In this document: positions 1 through 6,465 of the stretch, in pieces | Numbering within the stretch: position 1 is the stretch's first letter | How the letters are laid out: each line of letters opens with the position of its first letter | IMG/VR virus record: IMGVR_UViG_2547132415_000015 | Strand: one strand, 5' to 3' | From: a virus | Taxonomy: Duplodnaviria > Heunggongvirae > Uroviricota > Caudoviricetes | Length of the DNA stretch: 6,465 bases | Notes under the pieces: generated by a model | Seen by the model: the letters and a program-made list of their open reading frames with translations, nothing else | Told to the model about the DNA's origin: nothing | Databases searched by the model: none | Program-made: the position numbers and the translations under genes

Positions 1-1612
1 TTTCTGATGATTTCGCTGCCTCTTTTGAGGCCGCCGCATCCCGGGCTGAGGTGGCAGCTTCTGACGCCTTTGTGGTCGCTGCGGATGCAGAAGTGGCTGC
101 AGATTTTTGTGACGCTGCCGCATTCGTTTCTGACGTTTTCGCCGCACCGGCACTGGTAGCTGCCGCGCTTTTTGAGGACTCTGCAGCGGCAGCACTTTTT
201 GATGCTTCAGTGGCCTTTGTTGATGCCGTTCCTGCGCTGGAAGACGCTGACTGAGCCGACGTCGCGGCCTGCCCGGCTGATGTGCTGGCTGCGCGTGCTG
301 AGCCTGCAGCATCAGTCGCATGGGTTACTTCGCTCGTTTTTACTATCGCTGTCGTCACTTGCTCCAGCGAACTGCTCGCTACCTTTCCCGAACGCACAAG
401 CTGGTTTAATACTGCCGCCGCAGCGCCAGTTGTCGAATCAGCCGCATTCCCGGCACGTTGAGCTATATCGGCCAATTGCCCGCTGGTTGTCCCCAACTGA
501 TTTCCGGTAAGAATAAGAGATTTATTAAATTCGTCCTGCTCCTGAGAGCCTTTATAGTAAGCCAGTCCTAAGACCCCAACGGCTGCTGCGGCCAGGGTAA
601 AAGGATTAATTAATCCCAGCACATAAGAACCTACACCTTTGATCGCCGGGCCAATCCCACCGAACATATCTTTTAGCTGGCCGCCCTGCTGCATTAACAC
701 CATAAATGGCGACTGACCAGTGGACAACCCAACAACAATATCCGTCATTTGTGCAGGCAACATGCGCATAGCAAAAGCCGTTTGTTTTGCCGACATTCCG
801 GTTTTGCTTAATTGTGATTGAGTAACCTCAAGCTCACTCCGCATAGCACGAAGTTTTCCAGAAAGCTCCTCATACATTTCAGGAGAAAGCATCCCCTTAG
901 CTTTTGCTTCATTGAGCTGTTTCTGTTGTTCTACCAGACGATTAAAAGCAGTTCCGACAGGATCAAGTTGAGCAATCAGACGTTGCAAAGCAACAACCTG
1001 TTCATCATGCGCTTTTGCTGCTTCTCGCTCTGCCTGAGCCTCTCCGGTAAGCTCTCGCCGTGTTTCCTGTATTTTTCGGCTATAATTCTCAAACTGAGAA
1101 CCATTTATTTTCCCGGATGCAAACGCAGCATTAAGTTCATCATGCTGTTGTTCAAGATTTCTTAGCGCCGCAGCCAGAGGGTCGATCTTGTCCAGCATTC
1201 TTTGAAAGGCCTGAGCCTGCGCTTCCTGCTGGGCGGCAGCAAGTTTTCCGGCCTTCTCGGCTTCTCTCTGCGCTTGCGCAACCCCGCTCAATTCCTCTGT
1301 GGTTTCATTAAGTTTACGGACAAGAAATTCATATTCTTCTTTATCAATAAGCCCTTTATCGAAAAATTTCTTTAATTCAGAATAGCGTCGACCGACAGTA
1401 TCAATTGCGGCACCAACTGGATCAATAGCTGCTTTTAATTTTGCGAGCGCGTTCTTCTCATCTTCTGTTGCCTTAGTCACTTTCCCTGCGCTATTTGCAG
1501 CAGTTTCCCCAGCCTGCGTCATTTTGACTAATGAGGAGGTCAGATTGTCAGCATTATTTTTCGCTCCAGTGCTATCAATAATTATTGCGAGACGCGAGGT
1601 TTGCTCTGCCAT
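1..1612 (-). CDS. Phage tail tape-measure protein, N-terminal 537 codons (5' partial; gene continues beyond window start)
   Basis: ATG at 1612..1610 with an AGGAG Shine-Dalgarno 9 nt upstream (forward 'ctcct' at 1622-1626). My own translation of the minus strand stays open to position 1; this ORF is absent from the supplied track because it has no stop in the window. Residues ~281-320 read '[39 protein letters not shown]', which closely matches the conserved N-proximal block of lambda gpH as I remember it, and is followed by a hydrophobic segment '[14 protein letters not shown]'. It contains three ~75-aa coiled-coil-like repeats and an Ala/Ser-rich C-proximal tract. Confidence 0.8.
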
Positions 1613-2143: not shown

Positions 2144-2509
2144 TCAACTAATCGCCTCAGCACTGGCTTTTGCGATCACGGCAGCCGGGGAATTTTTTTT
2201 TCTGGTTATCGTAGGTGCTTCATCTGCTGCGGTAATGCTCAATTGAACCTGGATAATGTCGCTATTACCCCCATCAGGCCATTCACCTGACACCTGAACC
2301 TTCGGGAAACTGAAAGTGTATGCCCCCTCTCCATTCGAAAGCGTGAAGCTGAACGGAACTGTTTCTCCAGTCAGTGTTTTACTCCAGATTTCCCACGCGG
2401 CTTCCCGATTTTCTTTCAGTCGGTTCAGATCAACATCCAGAACGTCAGCGATTTGTTGTGCAGTCATCCGGCACGCTGCCAGAGACTCGACTTTCGAATA
2501 CGGAATCAT
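2144..2509 (-). CDS. Hypothetical phage protein, 121 aa, with an N-terminal helix-turn-helix-like segment
   Basis: Complete ORF in the supplied track. ATG at 2509..2507 is preceded by 'GGGGGTGA' 4-5 nt upstream. Residues 15-35 'MTAQQIADVLDVDLNRLKENR' resemble an HTH DNA-binding motif; the C-terminal half is beta-rich ('FSFTLSNGEGAYTFSFPKVQVSGEW'). The 5' end overlaps the 3' end of the upstream gene by 65 nt. An A9 homopolymer lies 17 codons before the stop. Confidence 0.5.
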   Translation of the reverse strand: MIPYSKVESLAACRMTAQQIADVLDVDLNRLKENREAAWEIWSKTLTGETVPFSFTLSNGEGAYTFSFPKVQVSGEWPDGGNSDIIQVQLSITAADEAPTITRKKNSPAAVIAKASAEAIS

Positions 2510-3377
2510 TTGTCACCCCCATTGATATGCAGGGTGTCTTCTTCCTGTATTTTTCGTGAAGGATTTTTACTGCAGCGTTGTTCCAGGTGACCTGATGGTG
2601 AATGCGTTTATGGCTGGCACCCATCAGTGAGATTTTTACGCACGACGGCGCATACATGACGGAGTAAAAACTTTTAACGTAGGTTCCGGAATCCAGATAC
2701 AGCTCGGTCATTCCGCCGCTGTTTTTCTGCGTCTGTTTCTGCCCTAACTGGACAGCACCGATCGTCATAAACAATTCACCACAGCGACCGAGATTCGTGT
2801 ACGTATTCACATCCTCGTTAATGCGCCCCATGAATGAGAACGGTCGATCAACCGAACAGATAAAGCTGTTCATTGCCTTGCGTTTCACCCACGAAGCATG
2901 GCCGCCATTGTCACCAAGAAAATCCCCTCCCTGCGACATAGCGATGGAAAGAGCAGGTATTGATTCGTAGTACGCCAGCATTTCAGAAAGGATCGCATCC
3001 AGTTTCCTTATCGGAAAATAGGCCTGGTCATAGTTGCGATCCACCCGAAACTGGAACTCGTGATAATCATCATCGAGCTGAATGAAGTATTTACACCCGA
3101 CCAGTTTTGCCTGGTCGAAACAGGCATTACGGGCGTAAAAAATTGAGCGGCGGTCACAGAAATTATCGGCTTCGTCAAAACGACTGGCGATATCGGCTTT
3201 GGAAAACACCAGCACCTGTTCACCAAATTCAGCCATGTACTGATGCCGTGTCTTATCTTCATCATCAACAACGATAAAAATTTTCCCGGTATAGCCAGCA
3301 CGACGCAACGTCCGGTAAGTCAGAACTTTGTCCGGTCGCCCGTGAGTCAGAATAAAGGCGCAAAAATCATCACGCAT
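2445..3377 (-). CDS. Predicted nucleotide-sugar glycosyltransferase-like protein (GT-A fold, GT2-like motifs), ~310 aa, no predicted membrane anchor
   Basis: The track ORF is 2445..3398, but the first seven codons (MVVRRRN) are just the purine-rich ribosome-binding site 'GAGGAGGAGGAA' read in another frame. The more likely start is the ATG at 3377..3375, which overlaps the upstream stop as ATGCGTGA. Numbering from the track ORF start at 3398: 'AFILTHGRPD' (res 14-23), 'KIFIVVDDED' (res 38-48), 'ARNACFDQAKLVGCKYFIQLDDDY' (res 88-112, a DxD motif; the DDD codons are at 3074-3066) and a later 'RINEDVN', together resembling the GT-A/GT2 signature layout. No PP-loop (SGGKDS) and no methyltransferase motifs (DPPY, FxGxG) were seen. 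Confidence 0.6.
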   Translation of the reverse strand: MRDDFCAFILTHGRPDKVLTYRTLRRAGYTGKIFIVVDDEDKTRHQYMAEFGEQVLVFSKADIASRFDEADNFCDRRSIFYARNACFDQAKLVGCKYFIQLDDDYHEFQFRVDRNYDQAYFPIRKLDAILSEMLAYYESIPALSIAMSQGGDFLGDNGGHASWVKRKAMNSFICSVDRPFSFMGRINEDVNTYTNLGRCGELFMTIGAVQLGQKQTQKNSGGMTELYLDSGTYVKSFYSVMYAPSCVKISLMGASHKRIHHQVTWNNAAVKILHEKYRKKTPCISMGVTNDSVFESRVSGSVPDDCTTNR

Positions 3378-4161
3378 ATTCCTCCTCCTCACCACCATGC
3401 ATGATCTCCACCATGCGCTGCGTCATCCGGACAAATCCATTTTCAATAGCCTGCTGATAATCAATGATCACCAGCGCCGACTCCTCGAAAAAACACTGAA
3501 TTTCAGCGGGGGCGTGAGCGTAATAGTCCGCAATTCTGCTGAAATTAAACACCGTGTGACGTTCTGCCGCACACAGGAGGAATTTCTCAATATCAGGCTC
3601 AAGGGACGCCGAACGTATCCGGCTGATCAGCTCCTGAGTTTTCGTATCGTCGTACAGTTCACTGATATCCGGTTTACCGCCCGACGGCTCATAAACAGGC
3701 GTATCAATTTTCGTCGTATACGGCTCCTCCTCATTTCCTGTACCGGGCAAAACATCCGTCAACAGTTCATCAATTTCTGTCGGGATGAAGCCTGTCAGGG
3801 AGACATCAAAATCAGCATTGATTAGGTCCGACAGCTCCATCCGCAACAGATCTTCATCCCAGCCAGCATTCATCGGCAGGCGATTATCTGCCAGGCGGTA
3901 CGCCTTTTTCTGCTCATCCGTCAGGCCAGACAGAACAATGACCGGAACAGAATCCATTTTGAGCATTTCAGCCGCCATAACACGACCGTGACCCGCAATA
4001 ATTTCGCCCTTTTCGTCAATCAGCACCGGATTAGTCCAGCCGAATTGCTTAATACTTTCTTCCAGTTGTGCCACCTGCTCAGTACTGTGCGTCCTGGCGT
4101 TGTGCGCATACGGTGACAATTCTTGTAATGGGCGATAGACTATCTTTAATTTCTCGCTCAT
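3370..4161 (-). CDS. ParB-like N-terminal domain (ParB/Srx superfamily) protein, 263 aa
   Basis: Complete ORF. The N-terminal ~95 aa have the ParB N-domain pattern: 'VYRPLQELSPYAHNAR', 'IKQFGWTNPVLIDEKGEIIAGHGR' (a GxxR arginine motif at res 57-60) and 'VPVIVLSGLTDEQKKAYRLADN'. The C-terminal ~160 aa are acidic and end in 'GGEEEEYA'. A weak 'AAGG' precedes the ATG. From memory this corresponds to the ynaK position of E. coli K-12 Rac, but I cannot verify that here. Confidence 0.8.
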   Translation of the reverse strand: MSEKLKIVYRPLQELSPYAHNARTHSTEQVAQLEESIKQFGWTNPVLIDEKGEIIAGHGRVMAAEMLKMDSVPVIVLSGLTDEQKKAYRLADNRLPMNAGWDEDLLRMELSDLINADFDVSLTGFIPTEIDELLTDVLPGTGNEEEPYTTKIDTPVYEPSGGKPDISELYDDTKTQELISRIRSASLEPDIEKFLLCAAERHTVFNFSRIADYYAHAPAEIQCFFEESALVIIDYQQAIENGFVRMTQRMVEIMHGGEEEEYA

Positions 4162-4178: not shown

Positions 4179-4212
4179 ATAAAACGCACCCCAGCAGCCA
4201 GTGCTACTGGGG
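4179..4212 (-). terminator. Putative rho-independent terminator downstream of trkG (minus strand)
   Basis: On the minus strand, 'CCCCAGTAGC-actg-GCTGCTGGGG' forms a 10-bp stem with one mismatch and a 4-nt loop (forward 4189-4212), followed immediately by the U-rich 'GCGTTTTATT' (forward 4188-4179). It lies 87 nt after the trkG stop and 18 nt before the ParB-like ATG. Confidence 0.5.
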
Positions 4213-4298
4213 ACGGAGGTGTTGCTGGTAAAGTTAGGTATTGGATCAATGAGTGAGTCAACATAATATTAAACTCACAATTATAAATCAGCCATATA

Positions 4299-5756
4299 TT
4301 AGGAGCGCCAAAAAAAACCTGAAAACAATATAATAACAGGATAAATTTCAAGGCGACCAAGAATCATAGCTATGCACATTAAACATTTTGCAATGTCATT
4401 AAGCACTCCGAATGACGATGCAGTAGCCCCAAAACCTAATCCCATATTATTAATACATGCAGCCACTGTTGCAAATGATGTAAGAAAATCATATCCCATA
4501 CCATTTAACACCAGTATAAAAAACACCGTGAAGAGAGTATAAAGAAAAAAGAAACTCCATACAGACCTCATTACACGATCTGTAACTATCTTCCCTCCTA
4601 CATTTACACTCAACAACGCTCTGGGATGAGAAAGCTGATTTATCTCGTGTTTGCTTTGTTTGAAAAGTATAAGAAATCGAAGTGACTTAATTCCACCACA
4701 AGTTGAACCTATACATCCCCCAAAGAAACTTGACAACAGCAAAAACACTATCGTGTGCGTGGGCCAACTTGCATAATCCTGCGTAGCTAAACCATTATCA
4801 GTGAGCATGGAGCTGGCAAGAAAAAACGAATGAATAAAACTTCCATGCAAGTCATACATACCTATATGCCAGACCTGGAAAGAGGTAACAATGATCACCC
4901 CTAAGGCTATTAACAGAAAGAAACGAAGTTCAATATCTCTGATTAAAGGTTTTATCGTTTTCCTGCTAATAACAATATACCAAAGAGTGAAGTTGAAAGC
5001 CGATAGCAGGGAAAAAGAACCAGCCACCAGCTCAACCAAATAGTTATTAAAATATCCGATACTCTCGCTATGAGTTGAGAAACCACCAAGCGAAACTGTG
5101 GAAATCCCGTGACAAATAGCATCAAACAAAGGCATTCCTGCAAGTCTATAACAGACAATACAAGCAATACCTAATAAAGAATAAGTTATCCACAGTGTCC
5201 GTGACGTATCGGCCAGGCGGGGAGTGAGTTTGTCATCCTTAAATGGCCCCGGCATTTCTGACTGATAAAGCTTTGCACCACCAATACCCAATAATGGCAA
5301 TACAGCAACCGCCAGAACAATAACTCCTAAACCACCTATAAAATTTAACTGTGACCGATAGTACAAATATGCCCGAGGTAATGAACTAACATCATCAATT
5401 ACAGTTGCTCCTGTTGTTGTTATTCCAGAAACCCCTTCAAACAGAGCATCAATGAACGTTAAATTAAGTTCTGAGTCAATCCATAAAGGGAATGCACTAA
5501 TAACAGAAAACAAAATCCAAAACATTACAATTATAATAAACCCATCACGGGTACGTAATTGAATGCCAGATTTCTTAGTTGTATACCACGCTCCGCCACC
5601 AATGCAAAAAAATATAACGAAAGTTATTAAGAAAACGAACAGGCTTTTTTCTTTATAAAACAATGCTACAACCATTGGTGGCAACATTGAAAGACTATAG
5701 AGCCAAACCAGGAACCCACACATATGAGTAACAACTCTTACATGAGATGTATTCAT
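4299..5756 (-). CDS. trkG: TrkH/TrkG-family potassium uptake membrane protein (prophage moron), 485 aa
   Basis: Polytopic membrane protein with repeated selectivity-filter-like glycine motifs ('TTTGATV', 'GGLGV', 'SLGGFS', 'GSTCGG', 'NMGLGFG') typical of TrkH/KtrB. I recognise the translation from 'MNTSHVRVVTHMCGF...' as E. coli Rac prophage TrkG from memory. The track ORF begins at a TTG at 5774; the ATG at 5756 gives the 485-aa product. The gene is visibly AT-rich compared with its neighbours. Confidence 0.9.
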   Translation of the reverse strand: MNTSHVRVVTHMCGFLVWLYSLSMLPPMVVALFYKEKSLFVFLITFVIFFCIGGGAWYTTKKSGIQLRTRDGFIIIVMFWILFSVISAFPLWIDSELNLTFIDALFEGVSGITTTGATVIDDVSSLPRAYLYYRSQLNFIGGLGVIVLAVAVLPLLGIGGAKLYQSEMPGPFKDDKLTPRLADTSRTLWITYSLLGIACIVCYRLAGMPLFDAICHGISTVSLGGFSTHSESIGYFNNYLVELVAGSFSLLSAFNFTLWYIVISRKTIKPLIRDIELRFFLLIALGVIIVTSFQVWHIGMYDLHGSFIHSFFLASSMLTDNGLATQDYASWPTHTIVFLLLSSFFGGCIGSTCGGIKSLRFLILFKQSKHEINQLSHPRALLSVNVGGKIVTDRVMRSVWSFFFLYTLFTVFFILVLNGMGYDFLTSFATVAACINNMGLGFGATASSFGVLNDIAKCLMCIAMILGRLEIYPVIILFSGFFWRS

Positions 5757-5830
5757 ATCTAAATATTCTTTCAATTATAACCACCTTGCTGCAATATTAT
5801 GATTATACTGTATAAAATTTAACTCCTCTT
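5757..5830 (-). promoter_or_regulatory. AT-rich putative promoter region for trkG
   Basis: Two minus-strand TATAAT hexamers (forward 5779-5774 and 5807-5802) lie upstream of the trkG ATG, but neither has a well-spaced -35 element (the TTGCAG at 5794-5789 is only 9 nt from the proximal -10). Call rests on AT-richness and the -10 matches only. Confidence 0.2.
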
Positions 5831-5893
5831 AGATCTTACTTCACTGTTCCTTATGAAACAATCATCAAAATGAATCATATTGTAGTTAAGATT

Positions 5894-6358
5894 TTACTTT
5901 AAACACTGCTCGGTTATGTATTGCTGAGCACCTTCAAGTTGGGCCTGCATCATTACCAGTCGTTCCCGGAGGGTGAAATAATCCCGTTCAGCGGTGTCTG
6001 CCAGTCGGGGGGAGGCTGCATTATCCACGCCGGAGGCCGTGGTGGCTTCACGCACTGACTGACAGACTGCTTTGATGTGCAACCGACGACGACCAGCGGC
6101 AACATCATCACGCAGAGCATCATTTTCAGCTTTCGCATCAGCTAACTCCTTCGTGTATTTTGCATCGAGCGCAGCAACATCACGCTGACGCATCTGCATG
6201 TCAGTAATTGCCGCGTTCGCTAGCTTCAGTTCTCTGGCATTTTTGTCGCGCTGGGCTTTGTAGGCGATTGCGTTATCACGGTAATGATTGACCGCCCATG
6301 ACAGGCTGACGATGATGCAGATAATCAGAGCGGATATAATCGCGGTTACTCTGCTCAC
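5894..6358 (-). CDS. Rz: Rz-family i-spanin (inner-membrane spanin subunit)
   Basis: The translation '[28 protein letters not shown]...[27 protein letters not shown]...' is near-identical to lambda Rz / E. coli RzpD as I remember them: N-terminal transmembrane segment followed by a coiled-coil periplasmic domain. Favoured start is the GTG at 6358..6356, preceded by 'GGGGG' 6 nt upstream and overlapping the lysozyme stop as GTGA; the track uses an upstream in-frame GTG at 6370. Confidence 0.85.
5953..6138 (-). CDS. Rz1: Rz1-family o-spanin (outer-membrane lipoprotein), embedded in a different frame within Rz
   Basis: '[20 protein letters not shown]|TSKQ...' has a lipoprotein signal with lipobox 'VVGC' and a proline-rich mature part ('[18 protein letters not shown]'), matching lambda Rz1 from memory. 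ATG at 6138 is preceded by 'AAGGAG' 7 nt upstream. The ORF lies entirely inside the Rz coding region. Confidence 0.85.
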
Positions 6359-6465
6359 TGTTGCCCCCACAAACAGACTTCACGCTCAATCTCACGACGA
6401 GTCATCAGGCCTTTCCATTGCTTACCGCCAGCGTATGCCCAGCGACGTAGCTGGTCACATGCGCC
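6355..6465 (-). CDS. Phage lysozyme / endolysin (T4-type, GH24-like), C-terminal 36 codons (3' partial; gene starts beyond window end)
   Basis: Minus-strand translation from the window edge reads '[36 protein letters not shown]' with TGA at 6357..6355. This matches the C-terminus of the lambdoid-prophage lysozymes of E. coli (RrrD-type) as I remember it. It sits immediately upstream of Rz/Rz1, the canonical lysis-cassette order. Confidence 0.75.

Follow-up and report, generated by a model that had tools for sequence, protein, structure and literature searches.

A ParB-like protein and a TAGT-family glycosyltransferase encoded as a translationally coupled pair at the head of phage packaging operons: a candidate modification module without the usual acceptor-making enzyme

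The TET/JBP-associated glycosyltransferases (TAGT, PF20691) occur in phage 5mC/T hypermodification clusters (Iyer et al. 2013, cited in PMC7968844; PMC8256090; bioRxiv 10.1101/2023.12.21.572611). In these clusters, the substrate of the transferase is 5hmC or 5hmU made by a neighbouring TET/JBP dioxygenase (5mYOX), usually together with a C5-methyltransferase, and ParB-like and terminase genes are often nearby. Both the GT-A enzymes of phages that act on DNA and JGT, the base-J glucosyltransferase of trypanosomes, have the motif R...DDD...ED (bioRxiv 10.1101/2023.12.21.572611). In the case of the phage and kinetoplastid relatives that were characterised, the substrate is DNA (PMC13390438; PMC7968844). 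The human family member GREB1 glycosylates a protein with O-GlcNAc (PMC7968844). About 65% of the glycosyltransferase contigs, those without 5mYOX/ThyS, were set aside as 'less likely' to act on DNA and left unexplained (bioRxiv 10.1101/2023.12.21.572611).

ParB-like genes are documented neighbours of phage TET/JBP-glycosyltransferase clusters, and a ParB-like protein activates a phage thymine dioxygenase (PMC13229309, PMC8256090, bioRxiv 10.1101/2023.12.21.572611). The action of the dioxygenase on dsDNA requires this phage protein, which consists of an N-terminal nucleotide-binding domain and a C-terminal domain and has no DNA-binding domain; the 5mYOX-associated ParB stays active after mutation of the NTP-binding residues (PMC13229309).

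The window analysed here is a 6,465-nt stretch of viral DNA. Two ORFs pointed out in an earlier note on this DNA are present on its minus strand. The ORF at 3370..4161 is the ParB-like partner gene, the intact form of E. coli ynaK, and encodes 263 residues: a ParB/Srx N-domain, a linker that is predicted to be disordered and carries a conserved motif, and a helical C-terminal domain. The ORF at 2445..3377 encodes a TAGT-family GT-A glycosyltransferase ('GREB1-related protein') of 310 residues, counted from the ATG chosen in the earlier note; the mechanical ORF reaches 3398. In the PGAP annotation, the TAGT gene is named "GREB1-related" and the partner gene is named too. Labels that annotators have given to the partner are 'chromosome (plasmid) partitioning protein' and 'ParB-like nuclease'. 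The combination of the two genes, regarded in the earlier note as an unrecognised arrangement, is not without precedent: ParB-like neighbours of TET/JBP-glycosyltransferase clusters are documented, and PGAP names both genes.

The translational-coupling junction is located at 3370..3391 (minus strand). The TAGT ATG (3375-3377) is embedded in the 3' end of the partner gene, whose last codons are GGT, GAG, GAG, GAG, GAA, TAT, GCG and the stop TGA (3370-3372), and the two genes overlap by 8 nt (ATGCGTGA, 3370-3377). The Shine-Dalgarno sequence GAGGAGGAGGAA of TAGT sits inside the EEEE codons of the partner, with AGGAGG 6 nt 5' of the ATG; the Shine-Dalgarno run GAGGAGGAGGA occupies 3381-3391. The stop/ATG overlap and the ribosome-binding site are as the earlier note had read them. 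The gene boundaries are annotated identically in intact phages, and purifying selection acts on both genes (dN/dS 0.05-0.15). Membrane-spanning segments are absent from the two proteins, whose highest Kyte-Doolittle means over 19 residues are 1.08 and 1.25. One message yields both proteins via translational coupling.

The 310-residue protein matches TAGT PF20691 in Pfam over profile positions 4-205 of 205 (E 1.2e-34, 120.4 bits against a cut-off of 27.5), and all 120 homologues among the matches listed carry PF20691. The GT-A-like motifs quoted in the earlier note are all present: IVVDDED at residues 33-39, YARN at 81-84, LDDDY at 101-105 and INED at 186-189. The catalytic set R...DDD...NED is intact on the minus strand, with R83 at 3129-3131, D102-D103-D104 at 3066-3074 and N187-E188-D189 at 2811-2819. 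In the alignments A1 and A2 (homologues of 60-82% identity), R83, D102-D104, N187 and D189 are invariant and E188 is nearly so. These residues agree with the R...DDD...ED motif of the phage DNA GT-A enzymes and JGT. The fold is that of a GT-A nucleotide-diphospho-sugar transferase, and Foldseek matched a homologue from a Klebsiella T4-like phage (E 9.8e-6); profile searches and fold both support the assignment in the earlier note. The two ORFs with their motifs and profile matches are far beyond chance. No sequence relative of the TAGT profile was found in the PDB. The downstream gene thus encodes an intact and soluble TAGT-family enzyme, a GT-A glycosyltransferase of the DxD type. Biochemical data on any member of this subfamily were not found in the literature searched.

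The same protein belongs to phrog_842 (E 5.6e-104), the namesake of which is the T2/T6 beta-glucosyl-HMC-alpha-glucosyltransferase, an enzyme of the same TAGT fold. The T-even enzyme puts a second glucose on glucosyl-hmC from a pre-replicative pathway. Among the matches listed, the T-even-type homologues have no annotated ParB-like neighbour, and the present enzyme shares only 22-24% identity with the Aeromonas T4-like homologues. Human GREB1 and trypanosomatid JGT contain a homologous glycosyltransferase domain. However, GREB1 is a eukaryotic protein of 1949 residues with the estrogen receptor ER-alpha as the target of its O-GlcNAcylation, the substrate that JGT glucosylates is 5hmU from JBP1/2, and neither has a ParB-like partner.

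The partner begins with a ParB/Srx N-terminal domain of the NTP-binding type (3757..4161, minus strand; residues 1-135). The profile matches (ParB_N, E 1.5e-6 in Pfam; phrog_620, 1.9e-90) and the ParB/Srx N-terminal fold bear out the ParB N-domain with a GxxR motif described in the earlier note. Box II is G57-H58-G59-R60 (3982-3993) in place of GERR; R60 is invariant, and the Glu and the first Arg are replaced. Box III is A-D-N, in which D92 and N93 are invariant. In canonical ParB, the GERR arginine patch and the ENxxR motif serve to bind and hydrolyse CTP. Nucleotide binding by this domain is plausible from the residues present. Its closest kin are the ParB domains fused to phage DNA methyltransferases (phrog_498, 5.7e-51; PADLOC MTase_II, 1e-38; PMC12704722). 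The fusions share the niche of the pair (prophages, commonly 5' of terminase genes) and presumably its logic, a ParB domain attached to a DNA-modifying enzyme. In the phrog_498 type, the ParB domain is fused to the methyltransferase, whereas in the present pair an adaptor domain follows it in the same protein, and the glycosyltransferase is separate and translationally coupled.

The linker, predicted to be disordered (pLDDT <50 across residues 137-161), contains the conserved linear motif Y148-T-T-K-I-D-T-P-V-Y157-E-P159 (3685..3720, minus strand). Y157 (3691-3693) is invariant across phyla; in the alignment of 54 partners (A5), the motif Tyr is invariant and the Pro nearly invariant. The helical C-terminal domain (3397..3666, minus strand; residues 166-255) shows the pattern FLxxAAxRHxVFNFxxIADYYAHA...SALVIID. 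It has no Pfam family, Phage_Gene47 giving sub-threshold matches only, and no relative in the PDB, where the domain profile returned spurious helical matches only. In 1.84 billion proteins, 1188 representatives of the domain were detected at E<=1e-3, always C-terminal to ParB_N or standalone. A Rosetta-stone fusion with TAGT was not found among them, the longer matches being ParB_N proteins with N-terminal extensions. The ParB domain is wholly missing from the partner in 44 of the 80 loci of one clade, and the linear motif persists in partners without it. The invariant companion of TAGT is the P-x-Y-x-P motif with the helical C-terminal domain, not the ParB domain. The overall interpretation in the earlier note, which stood in part, had overlooked this.

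By description, the partner resembles ParB176 of the 5mYOX176/ParB176 system: an NTP-binding-type N-domain and a C-terminal domain, with no recognisable DNA-binding domain, beside a DNA-modifying enzyme (PMC13229309). In that system, the client is a post-replicative Fe/2OG dioxygenase for which ParB is specifically required, whereas the present client is a glycosyltransferase. Many relatives of the present partner lack the ParB domain and contain only the motif and the C-terminal domain. The partner is strongly acidic (net charge -26; family-wide median -22), and no HTH domain was detected by any profile or fold search. Thus, it is unlikely that the partner loads onto DNA unaided. No inverted, parS-like or other significant repeats were found around the pair.

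Queried from either gene, the two genes are adjacent in about 95% of roughly 220 loci, which belong to Proteobacteria, Bacteroidota, Firmicutes, other phyla and an archaeal virus. In the search starting from TAGT, the partner lies directly upstream in essentially all 142 loci, and 125 of them, from many phyla, show an 8- or 11-nt overlap, as co-translation, proposed in the earlier note, would have it. In the reciprocal search from the partner C-terminal domain, TAGT is adjacent in 73 of 80 loci and one gene away in 5 more. The upstream protein is an obligate partner of the glycosyltransferase. In some phages, a SAM methyltransferase, a radical SAM enzyme, a histidine phosphatase-cytidylyltransferase fusion or a second TAGT is inserted between the two genes. 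Such tailoring or donor-synthesis genes within the pair are typical of hypermodification clusters.

TAGT forms more than 8000 clusters at 90% identity, and the partner domain about 1200 at 50% identity. The pair is found in the virulent L. delbrueckii phage c5, Lactobacillus dairy phages, a haloarchaeal virus and 191-kb Vibrio phages whose records show no lysogeny evidence. Of 5426 complete E. coli genomes, 889 (about one in six) carry the pair intact, often in defective prophages. In phage Rac-SA53, toxin genes occupy its position, and in phage Ld25A, TAGT is reduced to residues 235-279; the cassette is therefore dispensable and accessory. E. coli K-12 retains 254 nt from the start of the partner gene (ynaK), matching window positions 3908-4161 only, and has no transferase. 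K-12 ydaY was considered as a TAGT remnant and rejected, K-12 matching 3908-4161 alone. No study of this gene pair was found in the literature searched.

Neither a TET/JBP dioxygenase nor a dU/dC hydroxymethylase is present in the complete 38.7-kb Rac-type phage or in the complete 31.8-kb virulent phage c5. Neither was detected in 8 metagenomic places with precomputed Pfam lists, among the neighbour clusters in at least 5 loci (flanks +/-10 kb), or among the 25 commonest families, which were hit by at least 2 of the 148 neighbour-cluster representatives scanned. With these 25 families, the Pfam scan of 148 representatives rules out a common TET/JBP neighbour and not a rare one; another 194 cluster representatives lay outside the scan. 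The pair shares PF20691 (120 bits), the GT-A fold and R...DDD...ED with the phage hypermodification clusters, but the acceptor-making enzyme that marks TAGT-clade neighbourhoods was not found nearby. The conserved neighbour here is a specific adaptor protein, unlike the dioxygenase of the cluster TAGTs. As no such enzyme was seen, canonical DNA offers no known hydroxyl acceptor. Since the pair is encoded without one, the acceptor is not the usual 5-hydroxymethylpyrimidine made by TET/JBP or a hydroxymethylase. DNA glycosylation, one of the options in the earlier note, is unproven and has a real gap, as the pair comes without an enzyme that would provide a hydroxymethyl acceptor.

The locus corresponds to the ynaK region in an E. 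coli prophage of the Rac type that has lost its packaging and head genes. A deletion scar is located directly 3' of the pair (2144..2467, minus strand), where the start of a 69-aa pre-terminase ORF continues into the C-terminal part of the tail tube protein; the breakpoint is at about 2400-2403. The scar ORF matches phrog_309 (TerS) on residues 3-37 and phrog_290 (tail) on residues 37-120. In comparison with the intact phage L002 (blastn), 9,634 bp are missing (TerS, TerL, portal, head and connectors). According to this fusion downstream of the pair, the prophage is defective. The pair itself is intact despite the loss of the packaging and head genes.

In the intact phage, Q, the lysis genes, trkG, the pair and terminase follow in this order on one strand. 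Elsewhere, the pair is usually just upstream of terminase genes, with TerS, TerL and portal of several unrelated terminase types, and in temperate and virulent phages that are unrelated to each other it comes first in the packaging operon. Between trkG and the pair, an intrinsic-terminator-like hairpin is present (4189..4212, minus strand) with a 10-bp stem, 7 GC pairs and a T-rich tail after it. The GC content is 0.34-0.41 over trkG vs 0.47-0.51 over the pair. The earlier note had called the junction of lysis and structural genes a moron/defence hotspot. The pair is not such an island: the moron at this place is the low-GC trkG with its own terminator, and the pair heads the packaging operon. 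The hairpin shields the pair from the trkG moron in the lysogen and is presumably read through under Q antitermination only.

The best explanation, with about even chances of being right, is that the two proteins form an accessory phage modification module, expressed late, in which the partner-activated TAGT glycosylates phage DNA before packaging. In its favour are the TAGT family and its motifs, the obligate pairing, the kinship of the N-domain with methyltransferase fusions, the tailoring genes inserted in some phages, the place next to terminase genes and, for late expression, the gene order with a terminator after trkG. Against it stand the missing acceptor-making enzyme, the protein substrate of GREB1, the acidic partner with no HTH, the partners without a ParB domain, the 5mYOX-associated ParB that tolerates mutation of NTP-binding residues, and the dispensability of the cassette. 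During productive infection, Q-antiterminated late transcription would give both proteins in a fixed proportion. The C-terminal domain and the P-x-Y-x-P peptide of the partner would bind the transferase and switch on its activity. Where present, the ParB/Srx N-domain might add control dependent on the nucleotide or DNA state, as ParB176 does for its thymine dioxygenase. Sugar from an NDP-sugar would be transferred to replicated phage DNA prior to packaging, and the mark may label the progeny genomes or shield them from restriction in the next host. A more specific form of this idea seems unlikely: that the subfamily glycosylates canonical DNA directly, at an exocyclic amine, the backbone or a DNA end, with no hydroxymethylated precursor and with the acidic adaptor as the switch. 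Alternatively, the sugar may be attached to the invariant tyrosine of the adaptor itself, which would then be a self-priming glycoprotein that functions in packaging or anti-defence.

This last idea belongs to a wider explanation, that the pair is a protein glycosyltransferase system, whose acceptor would be the partner's own Tyr/Thr in the disordered Y-T-x-K-I-x-x-P-x-Y-x-P (glycogenin-like priming) or a packaging or virion protein of an adjacent gene. We regard it as rather unlikely, but it has a better claim than the other rivals. The O-GlcNAcylation of a protein by GREB1 (PMC7968844), the absence of an enzyme generating a DNA acceptor and the acidic partner, which is unlike DNA binders, are all in keeping with it. 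So are the cassette's position beside terminase, portal and capsid genes and the invariant Tyr of the obligate partner, which is kept in its predicted disordered, proline-flanked motif even where the ParB domain is gone. However, the conserved peptide equally fits a docking or activating element, DNA is the substrate of all characterised viral or bacterial-virus TAGT or JGT relatives, and the partner N-domain is of the type fused to DNA methyltransferases. The adjoining terminase and capsid types vary widely, which leaves no one structural protein as a conserved candidate for the substrate.

A function serving the lysogen is improbable. It would be defence, superinfection exclusion or lysogenic conversion, with incoming phage DNA, an immune-signalling nucleotide or a cell-envelope polymer as the acceptor. 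Prophage TarP, which acts on teichoic acid, is a model for glycosylation of an envelope polymer. The cassette is accessory, toxin morons can replace it at the same junction, and many E. coli genomes keep it intact, often in defective prophages. GmrSD enzymes, which sense glucosylated DNA, contain ParB_N-like domains (PMC12373910). In spite of this, phage c5 is virulent and the 191-kb Vibrio phages show no sign of lysogeny, and the pair is always in the late/packaging operon on the late strand, parted by the terminator from the only obvious moron. The hosts (Gram-negatives, Firmicutes and haloarchaea) share no common envelope acceptor, and signal peptide, membrane segment and Gtr-type partner are all absent. 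A Gtr-type seroconversion operon, which comprises a membrane GtrA flippase, the bactoprenol transferase GtrB and a serotype-specific glycosyltransferase that is an integral membrane protein, was rejected: both proteins are soluble, the Pfam matches include no Gtr families, and the pair is in a late operon. In PADLOC-DB 2.0, TAGT has no match, contrary to the defence module suggested in the earlier note, and the one match of the partner N-domain is to a type II methyltransferase model, at its ParB-like N-terminus. A PADLOC-type defence reading and a plasmid partition reading were both rejected. For the latter, a conventional partition or nuclease ParB would lie beside an unrelated glycosyltransferase, the overlap reflecting compact phage gene packing. 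The ParB_N match and the annotators' labels could suggest it, and stop/start overlaps are common in phages. However, canonical ParB (ParABS) has an HTH parS-binding domain, a ParA partner and a parS site, and the partner matches full-length ParB (TIGR00180) at 36 bits vs a cut-off of 58, over residues 11-94 alone. No ParA was found in the neighbourhoods examined, the prophage is integrated, and partners without the ParB domain still accompany TAGT. This explanation is effectively refuted by the reciprocal co-occurrence, about 95% in both directions and across phyla with the fixed 8/11-nt overlap.

So far, the only role in which TAGT-type enzymes are understood is that of the final step in hydroxymethyl-pyrimidine pathways. 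Among the orphan glycosyltransferases set aside by the largest survey (roughly 65% of contigs), the locus defines a subset that is coherent and very widespread. It offers a precise two-gene testable unit and a partner domain without a match in Pfam or among solved structures. As K-12 has only the 254-nt ynaK fragment and no transferase, studies of Rac in K-12 would have missed the module, and K-12 is a clean host for reconstituting the pair. If a protein is modified, the pair would be a counterpart of GREB1 in bacterial viruses. If DNA is modified, new acceptor chemistry or a hidden precursor route would follow, with a bearing on restriction evasion, sequencing artefacts in prophage-derived DNA and DNA-labelling tools. 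If canonical DNA is glycosylated directly, this would be a new DNA-modification chemistry, carried by roughly a sixth of E. coli genomes and by phages from many phyla and from haloarchaea.

The ParB-like gene (3370–4161) and the downstream glycosyltransferase gene (2445–3377) are both on the minus strand. The two ORFs described in the earlier note are present with the lengths given there, 263 and 310 residues, and all of the motifs it quoted (G-H-G-R, IVVDDED, YARN...LDDDY and INED) were found. As the note reported, the stop and start of the two genes overlap. The end of the ParB-like gene, ...GAG GAG GAG GAA TAT GCG TGA, contains the downstream ATG (ATGCGTGA), giving an overlap of 8 nt, and AGGAGG is located 6 nt upstream of this ATG. 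Both proteins are soluble, as had been proposed for the second. The observation is thus confirmed, and its interpretation is partly supported.

The profile search places the downstream protein, described from its layout as GT-A-like, clearly in the TET/JBP-associated glycosyltransferase (TAGT) family. It matches Pfam PF20691 with an E-value of 1.2e-34 and 120 bits (cut-off 27.5 bits) and phrog_842, "beta-glucosyl-HMC-alpha-glucosyltransferase", with 5.6e-104; the PGAP name of the protein is "GREB1-related". The AlphaFold model is confident for residues 1–180 and poor after that. Among homologues down to 60% identity, Arg83, Asp102–Asp104, Asn187 and Asp189 are invariant, and Glu188 is nearly invariant. 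They match the R...DDD...ED signature published for the active sites of phage DNA GT-A enzymes and the trypanosome base-J glucosyltransferase, JGT (bioRxiv 10.1101/2023.12.21.572611). The dN/dS values of the enterobacterial TAGT variants are 0.05–0.10. The transferases are mildly basic family-wide, with a median net charge of +6.

The upstream protein is tripartite, consisting of a ParB-type N-domain, a predicted disordered linker and a helical C-terminal domain. The N-domain most closely resembles the ParB domains found in fusion with phage DNA methyltransferases (phrog_498, 5.7e-51; PADLOC MTase_II, 1e-38). A canonical partition ParB was considered and rejected, as the TIGR00180 score is below threshold and the match covers the N-domain only. 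No HTH was found in the protein, and the neighbourhoods examined contained no ParA. With a net charge of −26 the protein is very acidic, and its homologues are acidic across the family (median −22). Partners of 130–160 residues lacking the ParB domain directly precede TAGT at six loci of the genome scan (L025, L028, L029, L040, L057 and L061) and at 44 of the 80 loci that the search from the C-terminal domain gave. These short partners consist of the linker motif Y-[ST]-x-K-I-x-x-P-x-Y-x-P...E-L and the C-terminal domain. In an alignment of 54 partners covering many phyla, the motif's second Tyr (Tyr157 here) and a handful of C-terminal-domain residues are invariant. Thus, the ParB-like assignment of the earlier note holds for the N-domain, but the invariant companion of TAGT is the linker motif with the C-terminal domain. 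This C-terminal domain belongs to no Pfam family, with only repeated sub-threshold matches to Phage_Gene47, and no relative was found among solved structures. A search of 1.84 billion proteins gave about 1200 representatives of the domain after clustering at 50% identity; these are either standalone or C-terminal to ParB_N, and none is fused to TAGT.

The pairing was analyzed in two scans. The first, with one genome per species, gave 62 loci with close TAGT relatives (38–100% identity) in Enterobacteriaceae, Bacteroidota, Clostridia, Veillonella, Acidobacteriota, Planctomycetota, Saccharibacteria and other groups. The second, using viral contigs, found at least 587 loci, and 80 of them were retained. 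Wherever DNA upstream of TAGT is available, the gene immediately preceding it on the same strand encodes a homologue of the upstream protein in practically all cases. Once the start codons had been refined, 125 of 142 loci showed a stop/start overlap of 8 or 11 nt. The co-occurrence of homologues, which the earlier note had set as a check, was also found reciprocally. When the partner C-terminal region of a Firmicutes sequence was the query, 73 of the 80 viral loci had TAGT as the adjacent gene, and 5 others had it downstream of a single inserted gene. These results indicate that the pairing is obligate and ancient. The pair is present in the Lactobacillus delbrueckii phages c5, LL-Ku, phiLdb, Ld17 and PMBT4, L. 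gasseri phi jlb1, Nocardia NTR1, Porphyromonas phages, the haloarchaeal virus HHTV-2 and 191-kb Vibrio phages. In the Vibrio phages, TAGT is located in the replication-gene region, not before the terminase genes. A 139-aa protein precedes TAGT in Vibrio phage pv27 (L146:7459–7878); it is probably a partner without the ParB domain, because it shows the same weak Phage_Gene47 match as the C-terminal domain.

A Rac-type lambdoid prophage of Escherichia coli is the source of the window, which matches thousands of E. coli genomes; the pair segment is 100% identical to that of strain AR_0061. In minus-strand order, Rz with embedded Rz1 (5894–6370), the potassium transporter gene trkG (4299–5774), the ParB-like gene and the TAGT gene are followed by a chimeric ORF, a tail-assembly chaperone gene and the start of the tape-measure gene. 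Rz1 is a 61-aa ORF in another frame inside Rz (5953–6138, minus strand) with a lipoprotein-like signal (…LVVVGC…), the classical embedded spanin arrangement. Induced phages such as vB_EcoS-666R9 are intact relatives, with the single-strand order Q, holin, endolysin, Rz, trkG, ParB-like, glycosyltransferase, 69-aa ORF, TerS, TerL, portal and head genes. Compared with vB_EcoS-666R9, 9634 bp comprising TerS, TerL, the portal, head and connector genes and most of the tail tube gene are missing from the window, and the prophage is therefore defective. The pair is nevertheless intact, the breakpoint (about 2400–2403) being only about 42 nt past the TAGT stop codon. The chimeric 121-aa ORF (2144–2509, minus strand) joins the start of the 69-aa pre-TerS ORF, for which the true start is probably 2467, to the end of the tail tube protein. 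A second, smaller gap, corresponding to 5558–6007 of the intact reference phage L002, is located at about 2000. The tape-measure gene (1–1611, minus strand; open segment of 537 aa) exits the window at its left end. Nucleotides 1–323 are GC-rich (0.585) and show no alignment to the reference phage; annotations of other strains place IS elements and stfR within the matching region or close to it.

Of 5426 complete E. coli genomes, 889 match the pair over at least 80% of its length, and remnants were seen in 1580. K-12 has kept the initial 254 nt of the partner gene only (ynaK; in MG1655, NZ_CP010440.1 2182497–2182750) and lacks the transferase. The neighbouring K-12 gene ydaY was rejected as a transferase remnant; in the intact phage, it is a tail-region gene that bears the name YdaY. 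Phage Rac-SA53, with a related TerS, has LT-IIa toxin genes at the same junction. In phage Ld25A (KJ564036.1/NC_025415.1, 366–500), only TAGT residues 235–279 are left beside a 'ParB nuclease' gene, a natural near-deletion. The cassette is dispensable.

Beyond the two genes, the recurrent neighbours are packaging and replication genes only. Upstream, the end of the replication module or lysis genes are found; downstream, TerS, TerL and portal genes of unrelated types (Sf6/P22-like, HK97-like Terminase_4/TerL_ATPase and lambda GpA) are found. As the terminases are unrelated, the position is attributed to function or regulation and not to the common descent of one terminase. In a few phages, further genes are inserted between those of the partner and TAGT. 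They encode a second TAGT or, at L157:4404–5240, L159 and L161 (about 4290–5309), L204:1905–2891 and L222:3488–4459, a SAM methyltransferase, a radical SAM enzyme or a fusion of histidine phosphatase and cytidylyltransferase. The fusion may make an unusual activated donor, and biosynthetic modification clusters behave in this way. Two TAGT paralogues surround or follow the partner at L028:2970–5117 (TAGT-like, partner, TAGT) and L064:8442–10882 (partner, TAGT-like, TAGT), which suggests sequential sugar additions. At L147:17837–20316, and likewise at L148, four consecutive GT2-family genes lie right after the capsid gene of a phage also carrying the pair; they may serve virion glycosylation, which would be a separate system.

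Enzymes generating a sugar acceptor were also searched for. No TET/JBP dioxygenase or hydroxymethylase was found in the complete Rac-type phage genome, in the complete 31.8-kb genome of the virulent phage c5 (the pair is ORF1 and ORF2, right after the cos site), in the full precomputed Pfam lists of eight metagenomic places or among the recurrent neighbour clusters. A common TET partner is excluded by this search, which for the neighbour clusters covered the 25 commonest Pfam families among 148 representative proteins. A C5-cytosine DNA methyltransferase is present in only 7 of 71 diverse loci, all Bacteroidales (L052:2491–4194 and six others), about 6.5 kb upstream of TAGT and without TET/JBP.

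The pair is an intact, selected, translationally coupled and obligate two-protein phage glycosyltransferase module at the head of the packaging operon, stranded here in a defective prophage. As for its function, we regard as evenly balanced the proposal that the sugar would be put on replicated phage DNA ahead of packaging, and that the partner would act as an adaptor activating TAGT. This proposal is based on the substrates of the characterized viral relatives, the relatedness of the ParB domain to ParB domains fused to methyltransferases, a ParB–dioxygenase precedent and the tailoring genes occasionally inserted in the cassette. It is weakened most by the lack of an acceptor-generating enzyme, and an acidic partner without a DNA-binding domain adds doubt. 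The strongest rival is glycosylation of a protein, which we consider rather improbable; the GREB1 precedent and the invariant tyrosine in the disordered motif of the partner speak for it. The earlier note also called the lysis-to-structural junction a known moron and defence hotspot and considered that the pair could be a defence module. The moron there is trkG, which has a low GC content (0.34–0.41) and is inserted between the lysis genes and the pair. A strong terminator-like hairpin (4189–4212, minus strand; 10-bp stem with seven GC pairs) follows trkG, and thus we infer, also from the gene order, that the pair is part of the Q-dependent late operon, not of the trkG moron. A role in defence, lysogenic conversion or partition is unlikely.

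The DNA-glycosylation proposal can be compared with published systems. As outlined in PMC7968844, the name TAGT was given to the glycosyltransferase found in phage TET/JBP clusters, and JGT and GREB1 are its relatives. A TAGT adds the second glucose on glucosyl-hmC in T6-type phages (PMC13390438). In phage clusters of glycosyltransferases and TET/JBP dioxygenases (5mYOX), ParB genes are frequent neighbours, with a suggested role in directing modification during packaging (PMC8256090). A ParB-like protein of a phage, which has a nucleotide-binding domain and a C-terminal domain but no DNA-binding domain, was reported in 2026 to be required by its cognate thymine dioxygenase on dsDNA (PMC13229309). 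A survey of ParB-CTPase folds lists prophage fusions to methyltransferases and does not mention glycosyltransferases. In a survey of phage glycosyltransferases, about 65% of the contigs have no nearby 5mYOX or ThyS, which was left unexplained (bioRxiv 10.1101/2023.12.21.572611). Our literature search found no study of the two-gene cassette. Since the TAGT family and its ParB association are already known, the module is not categorically new. It is an uncharacterized and very widespread variant, in which a TAGT without TET is combined with an adaptor domain without a Pfam family, and the ParB–TAGT cassette is worth experimental follow-up.
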